DNA of 28,859 nt from Pseudomonadota bacterium (lineage in GTDB: Bacteria > Bdellovibrionota > FAC87 > UBA2466), in contig JAYUGC010000108.1 of the NCBI GenBank assembly GCA_043767805.1, positions 1-28,859 of the forward strand, read 5' to 3'. Position numbers and translations under genes: made by a program. Numbering within the stretch: the first letter of the stretch is position 1; each line of letters starts with the position of its first letter. This document shows, piece after piece, positions 3,301 to 25,383 of the stretch. Under the pieces are notes generated by a model. The model saw nothing but the letters and a program-made list of their open reading frames with translations. It did no database searches and was not told where the DNA came from.

Positions 3301-4305
3301 ATGCCGGTACAGGCGGGCAAGAAAAAAGAAGGACGGAATTTTTACTCCGCCCTTCTCTGTGCCCTCCCCCTTCTGCTTGGGTCCGCTTCCGCGCACGCCG
3401 AATTGCAACAACAGCAACAAGGTGGCGTGGGCGGAGTCCTCAACGGCATTGCCGGTATCGCGGGCGCCTTGAGCGGCATCGGAACCGCGGCCATCGAAGC
3501 TTCGAAGGAGAGGGCCATCGAAGGAATTAATGCGGCGACTTCGGTCGCCACGACCCGCATCTCCGCCGATACGTCCATGTATATCTCGTCGAATAATACC
3601 CGCGTCGCTCTCGAGCAGACCTGGGCCGCGGAACGGATCAACGCTTACAATCAGCAATCGACCACGTCTCGTCTCGGCGCTCAGCTCGCCGAGCTCCGCT
3701 CCGCTCGCGAGAGCCAAGCTTCTCTAGAAAGAGAGCGGATGAAGAACGAGCGCGAGCTGAACGATATGCGCATCAATCTCGCCTATCAGCAGGCGGATGC
3801 GAACTATAAGCTCGCGCAAATGGGCTTGCAGTCCCAGCTCGTACAAGCGGGCCTCAGCACCGGTTTCGTCCGTAAGAACTCCGGCTCGTCGATAACGGCG
3901 ACCACGCTCCTTGGCGCTCGCATCCGCGAGGCCACGCAGCCGAACCGCTTGCTTTCGTCCATCGGAGCTCCGCCTCCTAACTACGGCACGCTCCCGGTCG
4001 CGCGCCTGCATCCGGCGCAACGCTACCCGAGCGCTTTGGCGGGAACTTTGTCGGCGAATGGCCTGGTGCGAGGCTCCAGCTTGGGTATGCCGGTGCGGCT
4101 CGCTTCCGCCTCTCCCATGCTCCAATCGGATTTGGTCAATTTTCAGCAAAGCGTCGCGCCTCGGTATGAGAACCGAGGCGAGATGCGTGCGCGCAGTAGT
4201 GTCCTTGTCGGGGGACTATCGCAGCAATCAGGTCACACCGGGTACGGCGTATCGGGCCGCCCGGTCATGGGCCGGCCTAGTGGTAGAGCGTTTGCGGAAC
4301 GTTAA
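3301..4305 (+). CDS. Exported hendecad coiled-coil protein A (unknown function; paralog of the C-terminal module of 4640..6979)
   Basis: Start reassigned to ATG 3301 (GGGGG SD-like run; downstream of the sigma-54 site). Signal peptide ending SASAHA|E, Gly/Ala hydrophobic helix, about 120-aa coiled coil, low-complexity tail. Confidence 0.8.
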   Translation: MPVQAGKKKEGRNFYSALLCALPLLLGSASAHAELQQQQQGGVGGVLNGIAGIAGALSGIGTAAIEASKERAIEGINAATSVATTRISADTSMYISSNNTRVALEQTWAAERINAYNQQSTTSRLGAQLAELRSARESQASLERERMKNERELNDMRINLAYQQADANYKLAQMGLQSQLVQAGLSTGFVRKNSGSSITATTLLGARIREATQPNRLLSSIGAPPPNYGTLPVARLHPAQRYPSALAGTLSANGLVRGSSLGMPVRLASASPMLQSDLVNFQQSVAPRYENRGEMRARSSVLVGGLSQQSGHTGYGVSGRPVMGRPSGRAFAER

Positions 4306-4526
4306 GCTTCCTCGGTTTTCCTTTCCCACACCATTGGCTTTTCCCGCACGGTGCCTGCGAATCAGTCGCAGTGTCGAAGGGCTGTACATCGCTAGCTCAT
4401 ACATTTCGGAGAGTTAGCGAAAATGCCTAAACGCGATCCTAAACCCTCATCAGCCGTCTAACAGACGCACAAAGTGAAACCTCAATCGGAATGCGGTTTT
4501 AAACACAGGTTGTCTTCAGGGGGGCT

Positions 4527-4542
4527 TGGCAAGGGAAGTGCA
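4527..4542 (+). promoter_or_regulatory. Putative sigma-54 promoter of exported protein B
   Basis: TGGCAAGGGAAGTGCA (GG 4528-29, GC 4540-41), preceded by the same GGTTGTCTTCA 11-mer as promoter A. Confidence 0.65.
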
Positions 4543-4639
4543 CTATTAGCCCAGTAGGAGCCCACGGCTCCTTTGCTGAACTCCCCGTTGTACGTAATCT
4601 CCCCACACATGCTCAAACGTTCCTTTTTTTGGGAATAGC

Positions 4640-6979
4640 ATGCATCACGGTTACGACATAAGAGTTCCCGGAGCCATCAGGAGAGTGCTTACCGCGCTTT
4701 CCCTCGGCTTGGCTCTCTGTCTCTCCGCCGAATCGCGTGCGATTAGCAGCGAAGGCCTGGTCGCCATGGCCTCAGTCCAGGGCGTACTCATTGCCATTGC
4801 CAACGTGAACCGCGCGATGCGCGACGCCGCTGAAAATCCGATGGATAAGTGGCGCCGTGAAGCCGTGCAATCCGCCATCCGCGCGATGCCTCCCGCGATC
4901 ATCGCCCTGGCCGCCGATTTCAAAGCCGGACAACTTCATGACAAAGACTTCCCCATGGTTCAGGCCATGCTGGGCGGCTTCGTCGATGTGAACGCGGCCG
5001 ATAACTACAAAAAGTTTTTGAACAAGCCCAGCGCCGATCTCATTCCGCAAGTGGGCAGCAATTTCCCGCAACAGTTCCTGGGCGGCGCTTCGGGCCCCTC
5101 GGGTCCTTCCGCGGGTCACCAAACCGTCACTTTTGACGACAATGCTTCCAAGGGCTCGGCTCCCGCTCCGGTCGCCATGGTCAACTCCACTTCCGAAGTG
5201 AAGGCCGCGGCGATGAAAGGCATCGGCGAGAAGCAAGACAAAGCCATGGACTCGCTCCGCGTGACTTTTGAAGACGAAGCCAAGAAGGCCGATGGTTCTT
5301 CCGTGCCCAAGGGCGAAACTAAGTTCGGCTTCAGCGCCGCGCCTGTCGACGACAGCACCATGAGCCGTCTCGAGCGCGCCATGGCCGCCTCGGTTTCCAA
5401 TCCTGCGAGACATTCCGCTTCGTCAGCTCAGGCCGGCTCCGCTAGCTCGGCTCTCACCGGTAGCGGCACGCTTATCCGGCGCGCTCCGGCCGCCGTCGAA
5501 AACTCTTTGGACGCGGACTTCTTCGGCAAGCCCGAGGATCTTAAAAAAGGGAAACCTCGCGCGGACTTCCATCTTAAAGTGAAGCCCAAGTACTGGCAGA
5601 TGAGCCCGTACATTCAGCTCATCGAAAGTTTGATGATTAAAGAGGCGCACGCCGAGGGCGGCTGCAAAGACTGCCAAGGCGGCGGGAAGGGGGGCGGCGG
5701 CGGACAACAAGCGGCGCAAATCCTCATGGGCATTGCGGCCATCATGGCGTCCATCGCGCCTATGATTGTCGCCGGCATCCAGGCCGACGCGGAAAAAGAA
5801 ATCGCGGCCACCCAAGCCAAGGCCCAAATCGAGATGACCAATATCTCGGCCAATACTTCCAAGTTTATATCGAACCAAAACACAGAGGTCACTTTACAAC
5901 AGACCGCGGCCGCCGAGCGCATCAACCGTTTGAACCAAGACGGCGTCAGCCAGCGCCTCGACATGCAGCTCGCCGAGCTCCGCAATGCGCGGGAAGACGC
6001 CGGTCAGCGCGAGAAAGATCGTTTGGCCGAGGAACAACGCTTGAACGGCCAGCGCATCGCGCTCGCGCAGAAGCAAGCCGACGATAACTTGAAGCTCGCG
6101 CGCCAAAGCTTGAATGCGCAGCTGACCCAAGCCGGTTTGACCTCCGGTTTCGGCAACTCCAGAAATTCCGGCAACGGCCTGACCTCGACGACTCTTGCCG
6201 GCAACGTCGGCACGACCGCGACGAAGGGCACGACTTCTTCGGCGAGCACGGCGACGGCCAGCACGAGCCGCGTCGGCGTAAAGGAAAGTAGGATTTCCTC
6301 TGCTTCGTCTTCCTCTTCGTCTTCTTCGGGTCTCGGCGTTTCGCTCGGCGATTCGGCTTCCGTCGCTTCGAGCGGCTCTAGCTCAGGCGGCGGCGCGGGA
6401 ATCACCATCGCCGATCGCATCCACGGCGGCTCCTCGTCGAACCGCGCGGCGTTGCCTGCGGCGGACGGCCGGTCTCGGCTTTTGACCTCGGCTTCGGGTG
6501 GTGTTCCTTCAGCGCCTGGCGCGAGCGCTTCCTCATCGGTTTCCTCGGGCTCGGCTTTGGCCGCGGCTAACGTCGTGCACGGCCCTGCTTCTTCCACGGC
6601 CGCCACGCGCGCCATCACGCCGGGCAAGCCTTTGGTCGCCTCGTCGAACGATGCGCGGGCTCTATCGGCTTTACTCAATGGCTCCGCTCACCGCGCGGTA
6701 CGCGGTTCCTCGAACGGCCAGCGCGTCGCGATTACGAGCAGCGACGCCAATATGCTGCTACCCGGTTCCACGAACTCTGATTTGACCAGCTTTACCGAAC
6801 AGGCCCAAACCGCCGACAGCACGAGCTTCGCGGCGACGAGACGCCCCAAGGTTTATCAAGATTCCTCACCGGGTCCCGAGGACCTGGTGGTGCGCACGGT
6901 GGCGAGTCCCAGCGGCGTGCACAATCCGCCCATCGCGGGCGCGAGCGGTCATGGAGGCTCCCGAGCCATCACAGACTAA
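4640..6979 (+). CDS. Large exported protein B with internal hendecad coiled-coil module and Ser/Gly-rich tail (unknown function)
   Basis: 779-aa ORF; N-terminal signal peptide (RRVLTALSLGLALCLSAESRA); block 5771-6151 aligns without gaps to 3487-3867 of protein A. Confidence 0.85.
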   Translation: MHHGYDIRVPGAIRRVLTALSLGLALCLSAESRAISSEGLVAMASVQGVLIAIANVNRAMRDAAENPMDKWRREAVQSAIRAMPPAIIALAADFKAGQLHDKDFPMVQAMLGGFVDVNAADNYKKFLNKPSADLIPQVGSNFPQQFLGGASGPSGPSAGHQTVTFDDNASKGSAPAPVAMVNSTSEVKAAAMKGIGEKQDKAMDSLRVTFEDEAKKADGSSVPKGETKFGFSAAPVDDSTMSRLERAMAASVSNPARHSASSAQAGSASSALTGSGTLIRRAPAAVENSLDADFFGKPEDLKKGKPRADFHLKVKPKYWQMSPYIQLIESLMIKEAHAEGGCKDCQGGGKGGGGGQQAAQILMGIAAIMASIAPMIVAGIQADAEKEIAATQAKAQIEMTNISANTSKFISNQNTEVTLQQTAAAERINRLNQDGVSQRLDMQLAELRNAREDAGQREKDRLAEEQRLNGQRIALAQKQADDNLKLARQSLNAQLTQAGLTSGFGNSRNSGNGLTSTTLAGNVGTTATKGTTSSASTATASTSRVGVKESRISSASSSSSSSSGLGVSLGDSASVASSGSSSGGGAGITIADRIHGGSSSNRAALPAADGRSRLLTSASGGVPSAPGASASSSVSSGSALAAANVVHGPASSTAATRAITPGKPLVASSNDARALSALLNGSAHRAVRGSSNGQRVAITSSDANMLLPGSTNSDLTSFTEQAQTADSTSFAATRRPKVYQDSSPGPEDLVVRTVASPSGVHNPPIAGASGHGGSRAITD

Positions 6980-7096
6980 AAGGAAAAAAGCTGCTTCGGG
7001 GGGTGGTCGTAAAGACCATACGAGTTGGGGGAAGGGACCGGGGGGTACCTTCCCCCTCTCATTTGTGGTCTCGTCGGCTTCGACGGGTAATCTAAT

Positions 7097-7311: not shown

Positions 7312-7327
7312 TGGCTTGGGTCCTGCA
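7312..7327 (+). promoter_or_regulatory. Putative sigma-54 promoter of exported protein C
   Basis: TGGCTTGGGTCCTGCA (GG 7313-14, GC 7325-26). Confidence 0.55.
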
Positions 7328-7375
7328 ATTACAAGGCTTTGTATTCAGCTTGTGTACGCGCTTGGTGGGAAAACT

Positions 7376-8233
7376 ATGAAGAACCTTTTGGCGATTATTC
7401 TCCTCCTTTCCTCCTTCTCCGCTTTTGCGGAGAATCGGGGTGTGGCCGCGGTTTTGGGGCTTAAGGACTCGTCGGTCGCGGATGCGGTCGAAAGCGGAGC
7501 CGGGGAGGCCTGGAATAAGTTTGAGAAAGAGAACGATGCGACTCTCCGTAAGATGAATGAGGAGAAGTCGGTGTTTCTTCGCAATGCGCCCCACCGGGAG
7601 AGCGCGCCCGAAGCGCCGGCCAAAGTCGAAGTGGCGCGGGAACGGGGTGGCGTGCAAGCGCAGCTTCGCCGTACTGAAGTCGAGAAGGAAAGAAACCTCG
7701 CCCTTCAGCAGCTCGAGTTTCGCCGTAACGTCGAAGACGCCATGAAGCGCATTCTTTCTTTCAGCCCTTCGATTCGCCCCGGCGCGGAACGCGCCGAAGT
7801 GCCGCGGGCCGTGGACGCGATGCCTGAATCGCAGATTCAAGGTGTGGAGGTCGCTCCCGCGTCTCCGAGAGATCGTCTTTTACAATCCGCCGCGAATCGC
7901 CCGAGTCCTTTTCGCGGTGTAAGCCATCCGAGCGAAGAGTGGCAAGGAGCCCCGTCTCGTTCCGAAGAGAGCGTCTCCGATCCGCGGGATAGTTCGCCGG
8001 AACGGTTCCAAGCTTCTCCCGACGATGACGAAGGCAAGCCCGTCCGGGTGAGCGCCACGGGCGACAGCGACGGCGCGGATTTTCCCGTCATCAACATGCG
8101 CCAGGGCAGCCGCAAGGCGGCGCCGGCCATCACTAAAATTTCCGGCGTGGGCAAAGGGCCCGAAGGCACTTCGAGTTATTTGAAAGCCCTCCCGGGACTT
8201 CAGTCGAATCCGCAAAACCACAGCGGCTTCTAA
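7376..8233 (+). CDS. Exported protein C (unknown function; short coiled coil plus disordered tail)
   Basis: ATG 7376 gives a textbook signal peptide MKNLLAIILLLSSFSAFA|E; GGTGGGA upstream. Confidence 0.8.
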   Translation: MKNLLAIILLLSSFSAFAENRGVAAVLGLKDSSVADAVESGAGEAWNKFEKENDATLRKMNEEKSVFLRNAPHRESAPEAPAKVEVARERGGVQAQLRRTEVEKERNLALQQLEFRRNVEDAMKRILSFSPSIRPGAERAEVPRAVDAMPESQIQGVEVAPASPRDRLLQSAANRPSPFRGVSHPSEEWQGAPSRSEESVSDPRDSSPERFQASPDDDEGKPVRVSATGDSDGADFPVINMRQGSRKAAPAITKISGVGKGPEGTSSYLKALPGLQSNPQNHSGF

Positions 8234-9249
8234 TTCACGACAGGCAAGAGCGTCTCATAGACGTCGGCGTATTGATTGGCGAGAGAGAAAGGATCGAAAG
8301 TGCCTTTCGCGGCGAGCTCCGCGCGCGCAGCTTCCGTTCTCGCTTTGAGCGTCTCAATCGGCGGGGAATCCACCAAGAAACGATTTAGGTTCAGATTGGA
8401 ATCGGGAAGAAGCTCGCCGAGGGCCGCGTGCTTTTCGTCGAATACCGACGGCACTCGCCAGTAAACCGATTCCAGAAACAGCGTGCCCCAATCGAACGGG
8501 CTCGCGTCGAGATAAAAACAAATGCTCGCGCTCTCTAGCCATTTTAGCCACGCCGTCGGCGTGAAGCTCTCGCGAGAATCGAGCGCCAAGGACTTCACTC
8601 TCAAGTTCGGATAGCGGGAGCTCAAGATCCCTTCGAGCCGGCGGTTCACCCGCGTTCCCCAGAGAAGCAGCGCGAGCCCCTTTTCATTTGCCACCGCGGG
8701 ACCGGGACTGAAATGGACGTACCGGCGTACGGTAGGCTTCAACGTATTGATTTGGCTTGGAGGGACATGGAACCGGCTTTTCAAAAGGTCCGCGTCTTTC
8801 GCGCTCGGCACCACGTACTTGTGATTCACGCCGACCGGAATCGAGCCGGGCAGTCCCGACCGAGACCCGATGAGCGTATTGATGGTCTGCAATTCCAAGT
8901 TGGGGCGAAGGCTTCCCGGAGAGCGAAAGCGGTGAAACGCGCTAAGCTGAGCCTTCTTCGCGAACTGGGTTTCCCAAAGCCAGTAAAACGGAGAGCGTCC
9001 GATGCGACGGCGGGTATTAAAGCGCCGAAGCTGGCCAGAAAAAACCTGATTGGGATGGCTCACCAAAACCGTGCGCTGCTTTTCCACCCATTCGCCGGGT
9101 CCTTTGGCTTCCCCTTGAGAGGCCACGAGCTGGTCGATGAGCTCCTGCGCTAGCATGCCGCGGGCGGGAAAGTCGGCGGCCGCGCGGCCGTCGATACACA
9201 GGCGAGGGGTATGAGGCATGGCCCGTTCTAACATCAGCTTCGACGCCAT
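8230..9249 (-). CDS. Highly divergent GT4/GT-B-like protein
   Basis: Residual GT4 landmarks: N-terminal CIDGR, VVPSAKDADLL..RFHVP, ASICFY...DWGTLFLESVYWRVP. Alternative start ATG 9219. Confidence 0.55.
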   Translation of the reverse strand: MASKLMLERAMPHTPRLCIDGRAAADFPARGMLAQELIDQLVASQGEAKGPGEWVEKQRTVLVSHPNQVFSGQLRRFNTRRRIGRSPFYWLWETQFAKKAQLSAFHRFRSPGSLRPNLELQTINTLIGSRSGLPGSIPVGVNHKYVVPSAKDADLLKSRFHVPPSQINTLKPTVRRYVHFSPGPAVANEKGLALLLWGTRVNRRLEGILSSRYPNLRVKSLALDSRESFTPTAWLKWLESASICFYLDASPFDWGTLFLESVYWRVPSVFDEKHAALGELLPDSNLNLNRFLVDSPPIETLKARTEAARAELAAKGTFDPFSLANQYADVYETLLPVVN

Positions 9250-9291: not shown

Positions 9292-10176
9292 ATGCTAAAA
9301 GCCGTTTTACTCGGGATTTCCCTCGCCCTCATCGCCTTCTTCGGCGCGCAAAGGGCGTGGCGAAGATGGCTCGATCCCAGCCTGAGAATCACCTTTTTCG
9401 ACGTGGGCCAAGGGGACTCGGCGCTACTCGAATGGCCGGGCGGGGAAACCTGGCTAATCGATGCGGGCGGCGGCCAGCCCGGGCGGGATCTCGGAGCGCG
9501 GGTCCTCTTTCCGGAGCTGACCCGTAAGGGAGTGCTCACGCTGGATGCCGGCATTTTAAGTCACCCCGATCAAGATCACGGGCTGGGGTTTGAAAGCTTG
9601 TTCTCGGACCTTTCGGTCGGAACGTTTCGTTTCAACCGCAAGTTCTTGGGCGAACCTGGTCTGATGCATCGGCTGAGATGGCTCGCTCTGACCAAAGGGA
9701 TTTCGCTGGATCCAGTCGAGTGGGAGCGCCGGGAAGGTTTCGCCGACTTTTTAGCTTTGGGCGAGGGCAGCGGAAAAAACGATCGCACGCTCGCCGTGAG
9801 CGTGTTCTTTGGAGGATGCCGCATCCTGTTCACCGGCGACATGGAAAAGGACGGCGAGGCCGAGCTCATTCGCCGCTGGCCGCGTTTACGCGCGGACTTG
9901 CTTAAAGTGCCGCATCACGGCAGTCACACTTCCTCGACGCCGGCTTTCCTCGAAGCGCTGCGGCCTAAGTGGGCGGTGATTTCGGTGGGGAAGAGCAATA
10001 CTTACGGCCACCCTCGGCCGCGAGTGCTTGAGCGCTACCGCGCGAGACACGTTTCCGTGCTTCGAACCGACTTTCACGGCTACGTGAGCTTTCGCATCCT
10101 TCCCACGGGAGAAATCTCCTGCGAGAGCGCGCTAGGCAATTGCGGAGAAGCTCGTTGTCAGGCGACCGCCAACTGA
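9292..10176 (+). CDS. Stand-alone ComEC/Rec2-type metallo-beta-lactamase-fold hydrolase with one N-terminal TM anchor
   Basis: [39 protein letters not shown] motifs; lacks the multi-TM Competence domain. Confidence 0.85.
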
Positions 10177-18691: not shown

Positions 18692-18763
18692 GGCCCCATA
18701 GTTAAATGGATATAACGGGGGATTCCTAATCCCCAATTACAGGTTCGATTCCTGTTGGGGCCA
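18692..18763 (+). tRNA. tRNA-Arg(CCT); CCA not encoded
   Basis: Cloverleaf: acceptor GGCCCCA/TGGGGCC, D arm GTTA/TAAC, anticodon stem GGGGA/TCCCC with loop TT-CCT-AA, T arm ACAGG-TTCGATT-CCTGT. Confidence 0.95.
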
Positions 18764-22301: not shown

Positions 22302-23108
22302 ATGCTTATGCGGTACGTATGCGGAAATGCGCGCTTTGGCGCGCTTTTATTGATCTCGTTGCTCGCGATGGGTTGTCAGAAGGATCGCTATAGCGGTGAC
22401 CTTCCGTCTCCTAGCCGTGACCTCGCCTCCACCATCTCCGATTCGGAGTATCCGGCGGTCGTGCTCGTCGTCGCTCCTTTGGGCGCGGGCATCTGCACTG
22501 GAACTTTCATCTCCGAAAAAGCCGTGCTCACCGCCTCTCATTGCGTGAGCGATCCCGGCACCTACACCGTCCGCTCTTCCTTCGGCACCTTCACGACCGC
22601 CACGAAACGCGCGCTGGGCGCGGGCGTGGTGGACGACCCGAACGACATCGCGCTCCTCGTCTTCGACCGCGCGGTGGCGAGCCGGGAAAAGGGCCAAGTG
22701 TACGATCTTCACGACAGCGTCCGCCAAGGCGACGTGCTTCGCCTGGTCGGTTACGGCTGTAACGACATCAACACTCGCCGCGGCAGTGGCGTGAAACGCA
22801 CCGGCACGAACGCGGTGGCCGAAGTGGATGACTACATCAACTTCCTGACCCCGACCTCTTCGTCGACCAGCGGCTCGCGCGGCATCTTCGGACCTTCGAA
22901 TCGCGCGGCTTCCTGCTTCGGCGACTCGGGCGGCCCGGCGGCGGTCGAAGTGAACGGCACCTTGGAAGTCGTCGGCGTGACCCACGCTGGTGGCGCCGAA
23001 GGTTCCAACCAAGTTTCCCAGTACGCGAACGTGGCCACCCAGAGCGAGAACCGCAGCTTCCTGAGAAGCATGAACAGCGATTTCGGTCTCGACATTCGGG
23101 GAATCTAG
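22302..23108 (+). CDS. Trypsin-like (S1) serine protease, lipoprotein
   Basis: Catalytic motifs TASHC, DIAL, GDSGG; lipobox LAMGC. Start could be ATG 22308. Confidence 0.92.
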   Translation: MLMRYVCGNARFGALLLISLLAMGCQKDRYSGDLPSPSRDLASTISDSEYPAVVLVVAPLGAGICTGTFISEKAVLTASHCVSDPGTYTVRSSFGTFTTATKRALGAGVVDDPNDIALLVFDRAVASREKGQVYDLHDSVRQGDVLRLVGYGCNDINTRRGSGVKRTGTNAVAEVDDYINFLTPTSSSTSGSRGIFGPSNRAASCFGDSGGPAAVEVNGTLEVVGVTHAGGAEGSNQVSQYANVATQSENRSFLRSMNSDFGLDIRGI

Positions 23109-23396: not shown

Positions 23397-23412
23397 TGGC
23401 CCTCTCTTTGCT
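23397..23412 (+). promoter_or_regulatory. Putative sigma-54 promoter of the Tad secretin/ATPase pair
   Basis: TGGCCCTCTCTTTGCT (GG 23398-99, GC 23410-11). Confidence 0.65.
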
Positions 23413-23425
23413 AATCGTCTCTCTC

Positions 23426-24433
23426 GTGCCTCTCTTCATTCTGCTCGTTCTATCTAGTGCCTTGGCCCACGCCGAAGTTCTCTCCGTCGGGGGAAGCCTG
23501 ATGCTGGATGTTCCGGGTCTCGTTCGCGCCGCGGTCGCGGACGGAAAAATCGCGCGCGTGAGAGCCGTGCCCCCTCGGCAGCTCTTCGTCACGGGTCTCA
23601 CTGCTGGCCGCACGCGGGTGACCGCTTGGGACGGGGCGGGGAAAGCCCATGACTTCGACCTGGAAGTCTTGCCCTCGAAACTTTTCCGGGCGTCGTTTGG
23701 AGACGGCCCGGTTCCCGTGGTCAAAGTGGACTTGGAGTTTTTGGAAGTGGATTTGGCCTCGGGCTCTCGGGTCGGTCTCAAGTGGCCGGACGTGGTTGAG
23801 GGCGCCCTATCGGGTAGCGCGCGAGGAGATGCCGCGACGGTCGCGGGTTCTTACGCGGCGACGGTCACTTCCGGAAAGGCAGTGCTTGAAGCTCTGGTTA
23901 CCGAGGGCAAAGCGCGGATTCTCTCGCGGCCTCGGCTCTTCGTGCGGCTGGGGGAAGCCGTCGAGTTTCATTCGGGCGGAGAATTTCCCGTGCCCACCGC
24001 TTCGGAGCGCGACGGCCATCTCTATCCCAAGATCGAATGGAAGACGTTCGGCCTTTCCACCAAGGTAAAGCCCGAGAGCGGGGACGGCATTCATTTGAGC
24101 TCGGACGTGCAAGTGGAAATCAGCGAGACCGACGCGAGCCTCTCGGTCAATGGCGTGCCTTCTCTCAATCGACGTAGGCTCACCACCAAGATGGAGTCTT
24201 TGGACAGCGAGACGGTGCTGCTCTCCGGTCTCATTCGCCGGGTCGTCACCAAAACGAAAGAGGGCGTGCCGCTACTCTCTTCTATCCCGTTACTCGGCCT
24301 TCTCTTTTCAAAAACCGTGGACTCCGAAACCGATTCGGAGATCGTCATCGCCCTGACTCTTTCTTTTCGGACTCGCGACGATCACCAGCGCGAAGTGATC
24401 GGAGCGCGAGAGCGCTTGGAGCCTTTGCCGTGA
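23426..24433 (+). CDS. cpaC: Tad/Flp pilus secretin (CpaC/RcpA family), compact form
   Basis: Signal peptide ending AHA|E, N-terminal domain (VADGKIARV...G.T.VTAW), secretin motifs HSGGEFPVP, GVPLLSSIPLLGLLF. Start set at in-frame GTG 23426, downstream of the promoter. Confidence 0.85.
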   Translation: MPLFILLVLSSALAHAEVLSVGGSLMLDVPGLVRAAVADGKIARVRAVPPRQLFVTGLTAGRTRVTAWDGAGKAHDFDLEVLPSKLFRASFGDGPVPVVKVDLEFLEVDLASGSRVGLKWPDVVEGALSGSARGDAATVAGSYAATVTSGKAVLEALVTEGKARILSRPRLFVRLGEAVEFHSGGEFPVPTASERDGHLYPKIEWKTFGLSTKVKPESGDGIHLSSDVQVEISETDASLSVNGVPSLNRRRLTTKMESLDSETVLLSGLIRRVVTKTKEGVPLLSSIPLLGLLFSKTVDSETDSEIVIALTLSFRTRDDHQREVIGARERLEPLP

Positions 24434-25383
24434 ACGAGTGGGAAACTTTGCTTCTCGGGGAAGCGAAAGGCCTGGTCCCCTGGTTTTCCGATCCGCGGGT
24501 TACGGATGTTTTCGTTAACGGCACGGCTTCGCTTTATGTTGAGCGGGGAGAGGGTTTGGAGAGTCACCCCACGCTCCTTTCGGAAGCAGGCTTACGAGAT
24601 TTCGTGGAACGTCTGGTGCTTCCTCTCGGGCGTCGCGTGGACGCCGCGCAACCTTTCTTGGATGGCCGGGTGGGAGAGCTCGGCCGCTTCCATGCGATCT
24701 TTCCTCCGGCCGTGCGCGGAGCGCCTCATCTGAGCTTTCGCATTTTTCGCCGTGGTGAAAAGGCTCCGCTCGAAAGCTTTGGGCCGACTTCCTTTATAGA
24801 AGAGGGGCTCGCTGCGGGGCAGAACTGGATTCTTTGCGGCGCGACTGGCACCGGAAAGACGACGCTCCTCTGCCGGCTGCTCGAGCGAGCCGCTCCGGAG
24901 GAGCGCATTCTCATCGTGGAAGAGAGCCGCGAGATTCAGCTCGATCACCCGCACGCCGTAACTTTAGAAGGCCGGCCCATGGGACCGGAAGGGGTCGGAG
25001 AAATTTCGCTCCGCGCGCTCCTTCGCCAAGCGCTCCGCATGGGACCGGATCGGTTGGTGCTGGGGGAATGCCGGGGCGAGGAGGCTTTCGACTTGGTTCA
25101 GGCCATGAACACCGGTCACCGCCGTTCGCTGAGCACGCTTCACGCCAATTCCTGCCGAGACGCCCTTCGACGGTTGGAAAGTCTGGTTCTGCTCGGTAGC
25201 CGAGGGGCAACTCTGCCCGCCGTTCGGGAGTGGGTGGCCGGCGCGGTTCAGGGCGTCGCCTTTCTAGAACGCCGCGGAGGGGTCCGCCGCATCACGGAAG
25301 TGCTTGAAGTGCGGGGTTTGGAAGGGGAAGTCTATAGAATCACTCCCAAATACAAAGAAGCAGAGGCTTTACCGCGTAGGTGA
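24430..25383 (+). CDS. cpaF: Tad pilus assembly ATPase (CpaF/TadA family), short form
   Basis: Walker A GATGTGKTT, IVEESRE, LRMGPDRLVLGECRG, MNTGH, TLHAN; GTGA overlap with the secretin gene. Confidence 0.88.
   Translation: MNEWETLLLGEAKGLVPWFSDPRVTDVFVNGTASLYVERGEGLESHPTLLSEAGLRDFVERLVLPLGRRVDAAQPFLDGRVGELGRFHAIFPPAVRGAPHLSFRIFRRGEKAPLESFGPTSFIEEGLAAGQNWILCGATGTGKTTLLCRLLERAAPEERILIVEESREIQLDHPHAVTLEGRPMGPEGVGEISLRALLRQALRMGPDRLVLGECRGEEAFDLVQAMNTGHRRSLSTLHANSCRDALRRLESLVLLGSRGATLPAVREWVAGAVQGVAFLERRGGVRRITEVLEVRGLEGEVYRITPKYKEAEALPRR

Follow-up and report, generated by a model that had tools for sequence, protein, structure and literature searches.

Two paralogous proteins with Sec-type signals and a polar helix of invariant length are possible subunits of a membrane-anchored helical tube

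What is the function of two exported-looking proteins that share a long, gap-free helix, encoded as a gene pair in the genome of a Bdellovibrio-like bacterium with no phage genes around them? The window analyzed here is a stretch of 28,859 nucleotides (contig JAYUGC010000108.1, forward strand), and the pair, genes A and B, lies near its start (Table 1). A first-pass annotation had likened the shared region to the DNA pilot protein H of phage phiX174 and had proposed an envelope-spanning tube built from eleven 11-residue units. The explanation that we judge best, though we hold it tentatively, is that A and B serve as subunits of a straight alpha-helical tube or bundle that is multi-stranded, anchored in a membrane and of constant length (about 18 nm).

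Table 1. Positions of genes A and B and of their features in the window.
Feature	Positions	Strand	Residues and basis
Gene A	3301..4305	+	334 aa, short form of the family; ORF and translation; orthologue at locus L003 60% identical; 5 relatives found in one search
A putative signal peptide	3301..3399	+	1-33, ends AHA↓E; basic n-region, hydrophobic core and A-x-A site by reading
A hydrophobic Gly/Ala-rich helix	3427..3495	+	43-65
A invariant-length polar helix	3487..3849	+	63-183 (block positions 1-121); no indels, AF2 helix, 40/11 periodicity
A helix-end motif QAGLSTGF	3844..3867	+	182-189
A disordered Ser/Ala/Gly/Thr-rich basic tail	3868..4302	+	AF2 pLDDT about 45-69
A tail motif RLLSS	3946-3960	+	
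A tail motif VRGSSLGMPV	4066-4095	+	
A tail motif SDLVNF	4126-4143	+	
A tail motif GHTG	4231-4242	+	
Gene B	4640..6979	+	779 aa, long form of the family; ORF and translation; orthologue at locus L003 58% identical; 21 relatives found in one search
B putative signal peptide	4640..4741	+	1-34; n-h-c pattern by reading, site SRA↓I; AF2 helix 11-29
B N-terminal small helical bundle	4748..5044	+	37-135; AF2 pLDDT 90-95; conserved in long forms
B internal signal-peptide-like element	5543..5653	+	302-338; basic stretch, KPKYW, weakly hydrophobic helix, AHA↓E
B acidic/Gly-rich linker	5654..5710	+	includes CKDC pair at 5663-5674
B hydrophobic helix	5711..5779	+	358-380; within AF2 helix 356-498
B invariant-length polar helix	5771..6133	+	378-498
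B helix-end motif QAGLTSGF	6128..6151	+	497-504
B disordered tail	6152..6976	+	AF2 model
B tail motif RLLTS	6476-6490	+	
B tail motif VRGSSNGQRV	6698-6727	+	
B tail motif SDLTSF	6776-6793	+	
B tail motif GHGG	6947-6958	+	

Translation and alignment of positions 3487-3867 of A with 5771-6151 of B reproduce the described block of 127 residues with zero gaps and 64 identities. The hydrophobic helix ahead of the block, the QAGL(S/T)(T/S)GF ending and the richness in Gln, Asn and Arg (25% of the block in A, 29% in B) were likewise recovered. When full-length A and B are compared by BLASTP, 77/161 residues are identical (E 5e-40) and the sole gap lies past the block. The extent of the relationship had been understated, as both tails contain a common series of four short motifs: RLLxS, VRGSSxGxxV, SDLxxF and GHxG. 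Judged by similarity, A and B are members of an unnamed protein family, for which a search of 1.84 billion cluster representatives returned 140 representatives (50% identity) at E<=1e-3 and 93 at <=1e-10; there is no relative in Pfam, NCBIfam or the PDB. Because A falls within a 43-row clade that contains short forms throughout (SH-aLRT 97) and is separate from B, the two types are old, retained paralogues.

The length of the helix is invariant across this family. Among the 127 module-covering proteins (65 short and 62 long forms) out of 149 matched, the 122 residues past the hydrophobic helix (between A residues 62 and 184) contain zero gap or insert columns, which is the outcome of the check for indels that had been called for. 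The helix-end motif is strongly retained, with G122 in 116/127 members, L123 in 106/127 and G126 in 111/127. AF2 models a single helix over residues 59-182 of A (pLDDT 94-98) and 356-498 of B (pLDDT about 88-93), although a long helix with high pLDDT is what AlphaFold generically returns for sequences of this kind.

The periodicity of this helix differs from the one first described. The helix-band maximum is matched by 219/300 and 150/300 shuffles for the two single sequences and by 366/500 for the family mean profile, and neither 3.67 nor 3.5 residues rises above shuffles, so the proposed choice between hendecads and heptads favors neither one and the eleven 11-residue units are not borne out. 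In the spectrum of mean hydrophobicity across the family, the highest peak instead lies at 2.22 residues (0/500 shuffles reach its power of 62.8); it is the second harmonic of 40/11, or about 3.636 residues per turn. The period of 3.635 residues per turn was taken from the data, a choice for which the shuffling of the whole spectrum accounts; at this period the second harmonic reaches 12.8 versus a permutation mean of 3.2 (0/2000), and it is at noise level at 3.60 and 3.667. The corresponding register is 11-11-11-7, three times over, and because it amounts to 40 residues per 11 turns, the helices are expected to run without supercoil.

Because this second harmonic is strong, the helix surface resolves into two seams, a variable charged stripe and a conserved Gln/Asn/Arg line. 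With an ideal helix assumed and Ala counted as hydrophobic, the hydrophobic seams lie at 330-90 and 180-300 degrees, the charged stripe at 90-180 degrees (DEKR about 0.4) and the amide line at 300-330 degrees (QN 0.56). The line comprises positions 4, 15, 26, 37, 44, 55, 66, 77, 84, 95, 106 and 117; Asn, Gln or Arg is the majority residue at nine of these 12 in the family and is present at 10/12 in A and 10/12 in B, with a mean fraction of 0.70 versus 0.26 overall and an autocorrelation that peaks at lag 40 (0.40). Conservation is much lower in the charged stripe (0.96 versus about 1.8 bits), a difference reached by 0/5000 permutations. By simple arithmetic, the small residues that are invariant in the hydrophobic helix and in the polar helix over its first third map to the two seams. 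The complete absence of indels also makes sense from this perspective, since each inserted or deleted residue would turn all downstream seams by about 99 degrees. The seams are separated by 146 degrees (bootstrap 122-169), as would fit about 10 helices (range 6-33) set at the corners of a polygon. This two-seam pattern is the one expected of a straight multi-helix tube wall like that of phiX174 H, which suggests such a wall here. The Gln/Asn/Arg line is one residue wide, and a narrow polar core in a lower-order bundle would also fit.

The published account of the H tube (PMC7354561) describes a decamer of 121 residues and 170 Å in which 11/3 and 7/2 units are mixed, with Asn, Gln or Arg at 18/23 inward positions. 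A and B resemble H (4JPN/4JPP) in having a Gly/Ala-rich hydrophobic N-terminal helix, a continuous helix of about 121-122 residues and about 17-18 nm, a mixture of 11/3 and 7/2 units, and a Gln/Asn/Arg line. They differ in that their units are interleaved 11-11-11-7 three times and straight, whereas in H three hendecads precede 11 heptads; in that about 125 residues separate the hydrophobic helix of H from its tube, whereas the two are contiguous here; and in that over the wider 275-345 degree arc Asn, Gln or Arg is the majority at just 12/23 positions, below H. Furthermore, H is a decameric virion protein without a signal peptide, whereas A and B are chromosomal paralogues with Sec-type signals and long disordered tails. 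The H-like architecture of the earlier proposal is thus independently supported by the long helix, its fixed length, the seams and the polar line. Parallel long helices around an axis also form fixed-length conduits in the C-terminal helical needle of PqiB/MlaD and the cytoplasmic funnel of CorA. A similar arrangement is proposed for A and B; however, globular domains drive assembly in those proteins, whereas the helix of A and B stands alone between membrane helix and disordered tail, and searches of the PDB by sequence and by fold gave no match.

We propose that A and B each enter the Sec pathway, as the reading of their N-termini suggests: both have an n-h-c segment with a small-x-small end, in line with the Sec signals first ascribed to them. 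Among short forms, 54/65 have an N-terminal 12-residue window with a mean Kyte-Doolittle (KD) hydrophobicity of at least 2.0, and the rows inspected have a small-x-small site ahead of Glu or Asp. Cleavage would follow A-x-A, at the normal signal site in A and, in B, also at an internal AHA↓E that aligns with the putative cleavage site of A. The residues A336 and A338 of this signal-peptidase-like element are at least 90% conserved in the 62 long forms, and we infer the additional cut in B at this point. The mature chain would then begin with a short acidic/Gly-rich stub, followed by a Gly/Ala/Ile helix of about 20 residues in the membrane that runs unbroken into the 122-residue polar helix. 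We further propose that the polar helices pack side by side through the two roughly opposite seams, in A-A and/or A-B contacts, with the Gln/Asn/Arg line toward the axis and the variable charged stripe toward solvent. Such a tube may enclose a lumen that permits passage. The disordered tails, basic across the family (KR 10.4% versus DE 5.8%) and with residues at least 90% conserved (G258 and S259 in A, G689 in long forms for B), presumably recruit a partner or cargo through their four motifs.

Where would such a tube reside? The hydrophobic helix has conserved G(-13), A(-11), A(-6) and P(-3) in the family, and its 19-residue KD mean is 1.32 in A, with a family median of 1.81 and values of at least 1.6 in 80/127 members. 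About 20 hydrophobic residues that come directly behind the point of signal-peptide cleavage would ordinarily stop transfer, so that the long helix would be expected in the cytoplasm. As a probable stop-transfer anchor, the hydrophobic helix argues against the periplasmic tube first suggested, and we lean slightly toward an N-terminus-out/C-terminus-in topology, like that of phage procoat, in which case the tube would be cytoplasmic and would not span the periplasm. Filamentous-phage procoat is laid out in a similar way, with a signal peptide that is cleaved off, a short acidic stub that is translocated, a single hydrophobic helix and a C-terminal part that is basic, although the coat has about 50 residues, whereas A and B continue for about 300-440 past the anchor, including the rigid helix. 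The location cues point in different directions: the hydrophobic helix has a flank charge of -1.30 on its N side and -0.38 on its C side, whereas Cys, at 2.9% in the family's linkers, is nearly lacking beyond them (0/17,780 residues in the helix, 11/24,683 in the tail).

Co-folding of three A with three B modules, in line with the A+B modeling suggested earlier, gave an ipSAE of 0.44 (runs 0.47, 0.43 and 0.44) against 0.00 for the best of three controls, with at least 93% of contacts agreeing between runs and partner pLDDT of at least 64; the verdict was 'weak support'. The mark used is passed by 116/157 solved complexes and 2/215 mismatched pairs, and at 0.60 or under by just 18/157 solved complexes plus both passing mismatches, in a calibration set that, unlike the A+B runs, did not involve own alignments and 3+3 copies. 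This single job returned neither an interface nor an oligomer geometry.

The most serious alternative, which we consider rather unlikely, is that A and B are type I inner-membrane proteins, inserted like procoat, that form a low-order (2-5 stranded) anchored stalk without a lumen. The rigid 18-nm cytoplasmic helix would then be a spacer or scaffold, the tail motifs would recruit partners and the Gln/Asn/Arg line would be a buried core. Such a stalk is favored by the hydrophobic segment 4-25 residues past the signal peptide, the more acidic N-side flank, the basic tails with four conserved motifs in otherwise disordered sequence, and the narrowness of the polar line. B is moreover laid out like a bitopic receptor, in which a 4-helix bundle in the periplasm is followed by a membrane helix and then by a long one, and among Foldseek matches of its N-terminal bundle a periplasmic sensor domain ranks best (4k0d_A), although its E of 0.17 is not significant. 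However, a coiled coil with a single core would be expected to give a first harmonic, and none is significant at 3.5, 3.6, 3.635 or 3.67 residues. About 270 degrees of circumference are conserved, beyond what would be buried in a bundle of 2-4 strands; the seams are far apart; and the 12 axial positions hold only polar or small residues and no large hydrophobic one.

It is also conceivable, if improbable, that the hydrophobic helix passes through Sec and the fully exported proteins assemble in the periplasm or outside the cell as a weapon or conduit, a periplasm-scale pore or tube in the outer membrane or a prey membrane used on prey or for nucleic-acid transfer. The Sec-type signals, the marginal, Gly/Ala-rich hydrophobic helix of A, the near-lack of Cys common in exported proteins and a length close to the 170 Å given for H in the account cited above are consistent with export. 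The one related locus with an organism name comes from a Pseudobdellovibrionaceae MAG, a lineage with a predatory lifestyle. Full export is nonetheless not the default expectation, because the helix of most members matches an ordinary transmembrane segment in hydrophobicity. The genes next to the pair include none for a secretion system, a secretin/ATPase pair lying 16 kb away, and family profile searches gave no prey-related or toxin match; use of A and B on prey is pure speculation. Pfam names in the rest of the window (UvrB, IlvC, PrfA, PrmC, MurA, glycosyltransferases, secretin and T2SS-E ATPase) agree with the earlier statement that no phage genes are nearby, and the neighbors, with synteny compared in one close relative, offer no functional hint.

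Very improbable, in our view, is an extruded fiber whose subunits, like inovirus coat protein or pilin, are stored in the inner membrane and polymerize so that their helices form the filament wall. The likeness to M13 procoat fits such a subunit, and a two-seam helix suits any wall of side-by-side helices. Yet the adjoining genes encode no assembly ATPase or platform protein, the combination of a helix some 145 residues long with 150-280 residues of disordered tail has no counterpart among known pilins and coat proteins, and no family match was found.

Least probable of all is that A and B are captured or domesticated homologues of a Microviridae pilot protein, H or gokushovirus VP2. VP2 (phiMH2K; phrog_16516, phrog_5158 and related) also begins with an Ala-rich hydrophobic helix containing Pro, like the Gly/Ala-rich one of H, and has a polar helical region with a Q-x-AGL motif (QTAGLN); its proteins differ in being 130-320 aa, of variable length, without a signal peptide and on phage genomes of about 4.5 kb. 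Phrog_5158, a VP2-type family (matched by VP2 of Bdellovibrio phage phiMH2K at E 5.2e-19 and by 15/15 tested VP2 relatives), has weak, composition-level matches to 14/65 short and 3/62 long forms (best E 3.2e-4), but these fall on its positions 180-299, missing the VP2 core at 56-146, and unrelated PHROGs score equally or higher on long forms. H itself falls in phrog_1471. Although 4jpn, the H tube, was one of only two PDB profile matches at E<=10, it ranked second, at E 2.8. The hhalign values were 6.8% against H and 2.1% against VP2 (1.2% for the 127 modules against 85 VP2, 0.4-0.5% against 37 long VP2). The module HMM scored at best 7.5 bits on the 85 VP2, and reverse HMMs at most 18.7 bits with bias similar in size. 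No match was found by tblastn in 50,697 phage records or by Foldseek in BFVD at E<=1e-3, and PDB profile, hhalign, Foldseek and BFVD searches gave no sequence or fold relative among known tubes. Homology to Microviridae pilot proteins is thus unsupported and close to refuted.

The case for the membrane-anchored tube is computational throughout. If the proposal is correct, this unnamed family would use a fixed-length helical tube design so far known from the DNA-injection protein of a small virus.

The two genes at the centre of this locus, the short A and the long B, encode paralogues whose likeness extends past the block in which it was first noticed. The first-pass annotation had aligned 127 residues of each protein (3487–3867 and 5771–6151) without gaps, at 64 identities, and had described a Gly/Ala-type hydrophobic helix before this block, a wealth of Q, N and R within it and a QAGL(S/T)(T/S)GF ending; all of these were recovered in both proteins, with Q/N/R making up 25% of the block in A and 29% in B. 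BLASTP carries the match beyond the 127 residues (77/161 identities, E 5e-40). The paralogy also reaches the tails, where four motifs recur in a single order, so that B can be described as a protein of the A type plus an additional N-terminal region. Around these motifs, which judging from sequence are probably docking sites for some partner, the tails are disordered, basic and rich in Ser, Ala, Gly and Thr. A search of the six-frame translation of the window with an HMM of the shared module, which includes the hydrophobic helix and the long polar helix behind it, returned the copies in A and B and no third one.

Features of the A/B locus and of its surroundings in the window
Feature	Position	Strand	Remark
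Gene A	3301–4305	+	334 aa; head to tail with B
Gene B	4640–6979	+	779 aa; head to tail with A
Internal signal-peptide-like element	5543–5653 (B residues 302–338)	+	Present in 62 long forms
CxxC pair of B (CKDC)	5663–5674		In the linker before the hydrophobic helix
Tail motifs RLLxS, VRGSSxGxxV, SDLxxF, GHxG	A tail 3946–4242; B tail 6476–6958	+	Order identical in A and B
Terminator-like hairpin	7040–7056		3' of B; promoter/terminator scan
Gene downstream of B	7316–8233	+	No Pfam, NCBIfam or PHROGs match; signal-peptide-like start; 46% identity in the related locus L003
Gene downstream of B	8230–9249	-	No Pfam, NCBIfam or PHROGs match; 74% identity in L003
ComEC/Rec2-like gene, two genes from B	9292–10176	+	Stand-alone 294-aa protein resembling the C-terminal metallo-beta-lactamase part of ComEC/Rec2
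tRNA-Arg (CCT)	18692–18763	+	Sole RNA family match in the window
Trypsin-like protease	22302–23108		Just upstream of the secretin
Secretin (PF00263 and pilus N-terminal region), then directly a T2SS-E/CpaF-type ATPase	23408–25383	+	Other Tad/T2SS components not obvious nearby

The surroundings are those of a bacterial chromosome segment (GC ~57–60%). Pfam and NCBIfam identify a polyprenyl-phosphate sugar transferase, HU, a urate-oxidase-N membrane protein, a ComEC-type MBL domain, UvrB, IlvC, glycosyltransferases, a beta-lactamase-fold protein, the protease, the secretin and its ATPase, PrfA, PrmC and MurA. No phage genes were seen across the window, as the first-pass annotation had held for the neighbourhood, and the context of A and B is chromosomal housekeeping. 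Searches of Pfam, NCBIfam and PHROGs gave nothing usable for the A/B pair or for the two genes that follow it. The promoter/terminator scan found 0 promoter-like sites, a result that is uninformative on whether the genes form an operon. The ComEC/Rec2-like protein matches TIGR00361 at positions 438–663 only (E 7e-42, below the family cut-off) and is not evidence for the idea of a nucleic acid conduit.

A and B belong to a sizeable family without a name. A collection clustered at 90% identity contains 5 relatives of A and 21 of B, and phmmer, run with the 172-residue module on 1.84 billion cluster representatives, found 140 proteins at E<=1e-3, 93 of them at <=1e-10. These proteins come in short forms of ~260–450 residues, with the module right behind the N-terminus, and long forms of ~550–925 residues, with the module at ~330–560. 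None contains a Pfam domain, and the only name they bear is 'hypothetical protein', from MAGs labelled 'Deltaproteobacteria bacterium' or 'bacterium'; the 10 members looked up in their clusters were all singletons, hypothetical or nameless. A quick maximum-likelihood tree built on 127 modules places A inside a clade of 43 rows consisting entirely of short forms (SH-aLRT 97) and B among the long forms; the short/long label changes 18 times in it, as against 42.5 in shuffles. On the evidence of this tree, the short and long types are apparently old paralogues, both of which have been kept.

A search of reference genomes with a five-sequence alignment matched 147 stretches, 1 of which was confirmed. 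This is L003, a locus in a MAG of a closely related member of the Pseudobdellovibrionaceae, where the gene order is as in the window. Of the survey of homologues and neighbourhoods envisaged by the first-pass annotation, the homologue part gave the 140 relatives and the neighbourhood part yielded no independent synteny, L003 being so close. The module HMM also matched a minus-strand ORF of L003 (11518–13704), a homologue of UvrB, at E 5.8e-14 in two short stretches, and the UvrB of the window gave no such match; masking or low complexity may account for it.

The family has in common a helix of ~122 residues whose length does not change. The module alignment holds 127 of the 149 matched proteins, those covering the module, after 22 partial rows were dropped. 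Across these 127 members there are 0 gap and 0 insert columns between A residues 62 and 184, and the gap-free correspondence of A and B noted at first extends over this segment to all of them, whereas the linker before this segment and the tail after it vary in length. Structural statements here are predictions, and statements on signal peptides, transmembrane segments and coiled coils rest on simple hydrophobicity measures. With family alignments, AlphaFold2 predicts A residues 59–182 (pLDDT 94–98) and B residues 356–498 (pLDDT ~88–93) each as one unbroken helix that includes the hydrophobic part, followed by a disordered tail. B residues 37–135 form a small, confidently predicted helical bundle, behind which come ~170 disordered residues. 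Foldseek returned 0 matches for A in the PDB, nothing at E<=1e-3 for B in the PDB or for A in BFVD, and the ESM Atlas gave no usable match for A or the N-domain of B. These results speak against an alpha pore-forming toxin of the ClyA/Hbl type, a folded-back helical bundle with a hydrophobic head: the predicted helix is single and not folded back, and Foldseek gave no PDB match for A or, at E<=1e-3, for B.

The periodicity of this helix is not the one originally read from the sequence. The proposed division into eleven hendecads does not hold: neither 3.5 nor 3.67 stands out in A, in B or in the mean profile of the family. We reject a canonical heptad coiled coil, since the family-profile power is 1.0 at 3.5 and has its peak, 62.8, at 2.22, and likewise a right-handed hendecad (11/3) coiled coil with a single core stripe, given a power of 9.1 at 3.67 and a band maximum reached by 366/500 shuffles. 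The spectrum of family mean hydrophobicity is instead dominated by the peak at 2.22 residues, a power equalled in 0/500 shuffles. We set aside a beta-strand reading of this period on the grounds of the helix-former composition and the predicted helix. The peak arises by aliasing from the second harmonic of a helix that makes one turn per 3.635 residues (40/11). The second harmonic has a value of 12.8 at 3.635, where permutations average 3.2 (0/2000), and the first does not rise above noise there; neither harmonic does so at 3.667, and there is nothing at 3.60. The 40/11 register explains the absolute ban on indels, since one added residue would turn everything downstream by ~99 degrees. The autocorrelation of N/Q/R also has its maximum at lag 40.

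Plotted at 40/11, the helix shows four distinct faces. Two hydrophobic seams lie at 330–90 and 180–300 degrees, Ala-rich at first, near the membrane, then rich in Leu and Ile, and carry near-invariant small residues at G(-13), A(-11), A(-6), A1, A5, A7, A12 and A16 (arithmetic on the alignment). A charged stripe 90 degrees wide (DEKR ~0.4) is conserved at 0.96 bits against ~1.8 bits in the other three faces (0/5000 permutations), which leaves about three-quarters of the helix circumference under constraint. The fourth face, with QN 0.56 and hydrophobic 0.12, is a thin line of amide residues on which a conserved Pro(-3) also falls. It runs through block positions 4, 15, 26, 37, 44, 55, 66, 77, 84, 95, 106 and 117, in steps of 11-11-11-7 that occur three times, and N, Q or R is the majority residue at 9/12 of these positions in the family and occupies 10/12 in A and 10/12 in B. 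We infer from this residue pattern that the line would face a lumen.

A straight helix with two opposite seams, a variable exposed stripe and a conserved polar line is the pattern demanded by the wall of a many-stranded tube, and not that of a classical coiled coil of 2–4 strands. The seams are separated by 146 degrees (bootstrap 122–169), which in a regular ring corresponds, as a crude estimate, to ~10 helices (range 6–33). Co-folding of three A and three B modules was classed as 'weak support', with an ipSAE of 0.44 (0.47, 0.43 and 0.44) against 0.00 for the best of three controls; the runs agreed in at least 93% of contacts at a partner pLDDT of at least 64 and came with no contact list. 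The mark applied here was reached by 116/157 solved complexes and by 2/215 mismatched pairs, but of those passing at 0.60 or under only 18 were among the 157 solved complexes and both passing mismatches were there too, and our custom alignments and 3+3 copies differ from that calibration set. The score is compatible with co-assembly of A and B and silent on a lumen.

The closest known object is the tube of the phiX174 DNA pilot protein H. According to PMC7354561, residues 151–271 of H form a decameric tube of 170 Å, in which three hendecads lead through a transition to eleven heptads; N, Q or R occupies 18/23 inward positions. Tubes of alpha helices that conduct nucleic acid through a polar lumen are known from a phage pilot protein, and PMC7354561 mentions one calicivirus example. 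With H, whose units are given in Table 1 of that source, the predicted helices of A and B share a continuous length of ~120 residues and a register that mixes 11/3 with 7/2, though the units follow in another order. H is decameric; for A and B seam geometry suggests 6–33 helices, and the 3+3 co-folding, the one oligomer test, scored as above. H is also a virion protein encoded in a microvirus genome and has no signal peptide, whereas A and B are chromosomal and have Sec-type N-termini. The spectrum of H itself has a 2.23-residue peak, which is not significant for a single sequence.

Common ancestry with the pilot proteins found no footing in our searches. For H, hhalign gave 6.8% over 21 columns, and the hmmsearch of the PDB, which produced nothing significant for the family, listed 4jpn_A at E 2.8 (10.9 bits, bias 12.2). 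For VP2, the gokushovirus pilot protein, hhalign gave 2.1% (VP2 of Bdellovibrio phage phiMH2K), 1.2% (127 modules against 85 VP2) and 0.4–0.5% (37 longest VP2), while HMM scores in both directions were no bigger than composition bias (forward <=7.5 bits). A tblastn search of 50,697 phage records gave nothing. The PHROGs family phrog_5158 was matched by 14/65 short and 3/62 long forms (best E 3.2e-4). This family is of the gokushovirus VP2 type, being matched by phiMH2K VP2 at E 5.2e-19 and by 15/15 VP2 relatives, alongside families named 'pilot protein for DNA ejection'. Because the matches cover positions 180–299, outside the VP2 core (56–146), and because unrelated PHROGs score equally well or better for the long forms, we treat them as shared composition and periodicity. 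The likeness is thus one of working principle and not of ancestry, and membership of A and B among the pilot proteins cannot be claimed.

Short forms start with a Sec-type signal peptide that ends in small-x-small and is followed by E or D, and 54/65 have a hydrophobic core with a 12-residue Kyte-Doolittle (KD) mean of at least 2.0. The Sec signals first proposed for both A and B stand by this hydrophobicity heuristic, with n-h-c organization and small-x-small sites whose predicted cleavage is AHA↓E in A and SRA↓I in B. In short forms the signal peptide is followed by 4–25 acidic/Gly-rich residues and then by the hydrophobic helix of ~20 residues, consensus ILFGIAAIIAAIAPMVVAAI. Long forms have, in addition, a second signal-like element directly before the linker, in which a basic stretch and KPKYW precede a weakly hydrophobic helix of ~15 residues, frequently a Pro, and A-x-A↓E. 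In the 62 long forms the residues at A336 and A338 of B are at least 90% conserved, and the internal A-x-A↓E of B aligns with the signal cleavage site of A; short and long forms would therefore acquire mature N-termini of one kind. The element suggests either that long forms are processed internally or that a gene fusion took place long ago. CxxC pairs also occur, in many of the long forms and some of the short ones, in the acidic/Gly-rich linker, where Cys accounts for 2.9% of residues, as against 0/17,780 in the helix and 11/24,683 in the tail.

The signal peptidase site must lie on the periplasmic side of the membrane, and the hydrophobic helix begins 4–25 residues after it; this helix either spans the inner membrane or is fully translocated, a choice that bears directly on the envelope-spanning tube proposed by the first-pass annotation. 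We lean slightly toward a type I arrangement, in which it would cross from periplasm to cytoplasm, in the manner of phage procoat, and leave the long helix and basic tail in the cytoplasm. The hydrophobicity of the helix across the family (19-residue KD median 1.81; >=1.6 in 80/127), the flanking charge (-1.30 on the N side and -0.38 on the C side; C minus N >0 in 74/124) and the basic tail itself favor this arrangement. Full translocation, with a periplasmic long helix, would accord with the marginal hydrophobicity of the helix of A (KD 1.32) and with the near-absence of Cys from helix and tail. No one of these lines is decisive.

Taken as a whole, the following model is improbable in our estimate. 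A and B would be the chromosomal, cellular counterpart of the H tube: a straight nanotube of at least six strands, perhaps ~10, made of two paralogues of ancient origin that signal peptidase matures, in one case at an internal site. A ring of Gly/Ala transmembrane helices would anchor the tube, its lumen, lined with amide and guanidinium groups, would conduct nucleic acid or another polar polymer across a membrane of a Bdellovibrio-like bacterium, and the basic disordered tails would form the end that captures the cargo or a partner.

In full-text literature searches and family libraries we found no description of a cellular, Sec-delivered tube of free-standing helices. Even if the helix is a mere stalk, 122 residues with 0 indels in 127 diverged members constitute an unusually strict molecular ruler. 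The tube model also offers experimental handles in the seam positions, the line positions and the cleavage sites. If it is true, the family would provide a bacterial case of internal signal-peptidase processing and a natural 40/11 straight-helix barrel of use to protein designers, and the Bdellovibrio-like lineage would possess a conduit of a new type, in the envelope or a membrane.
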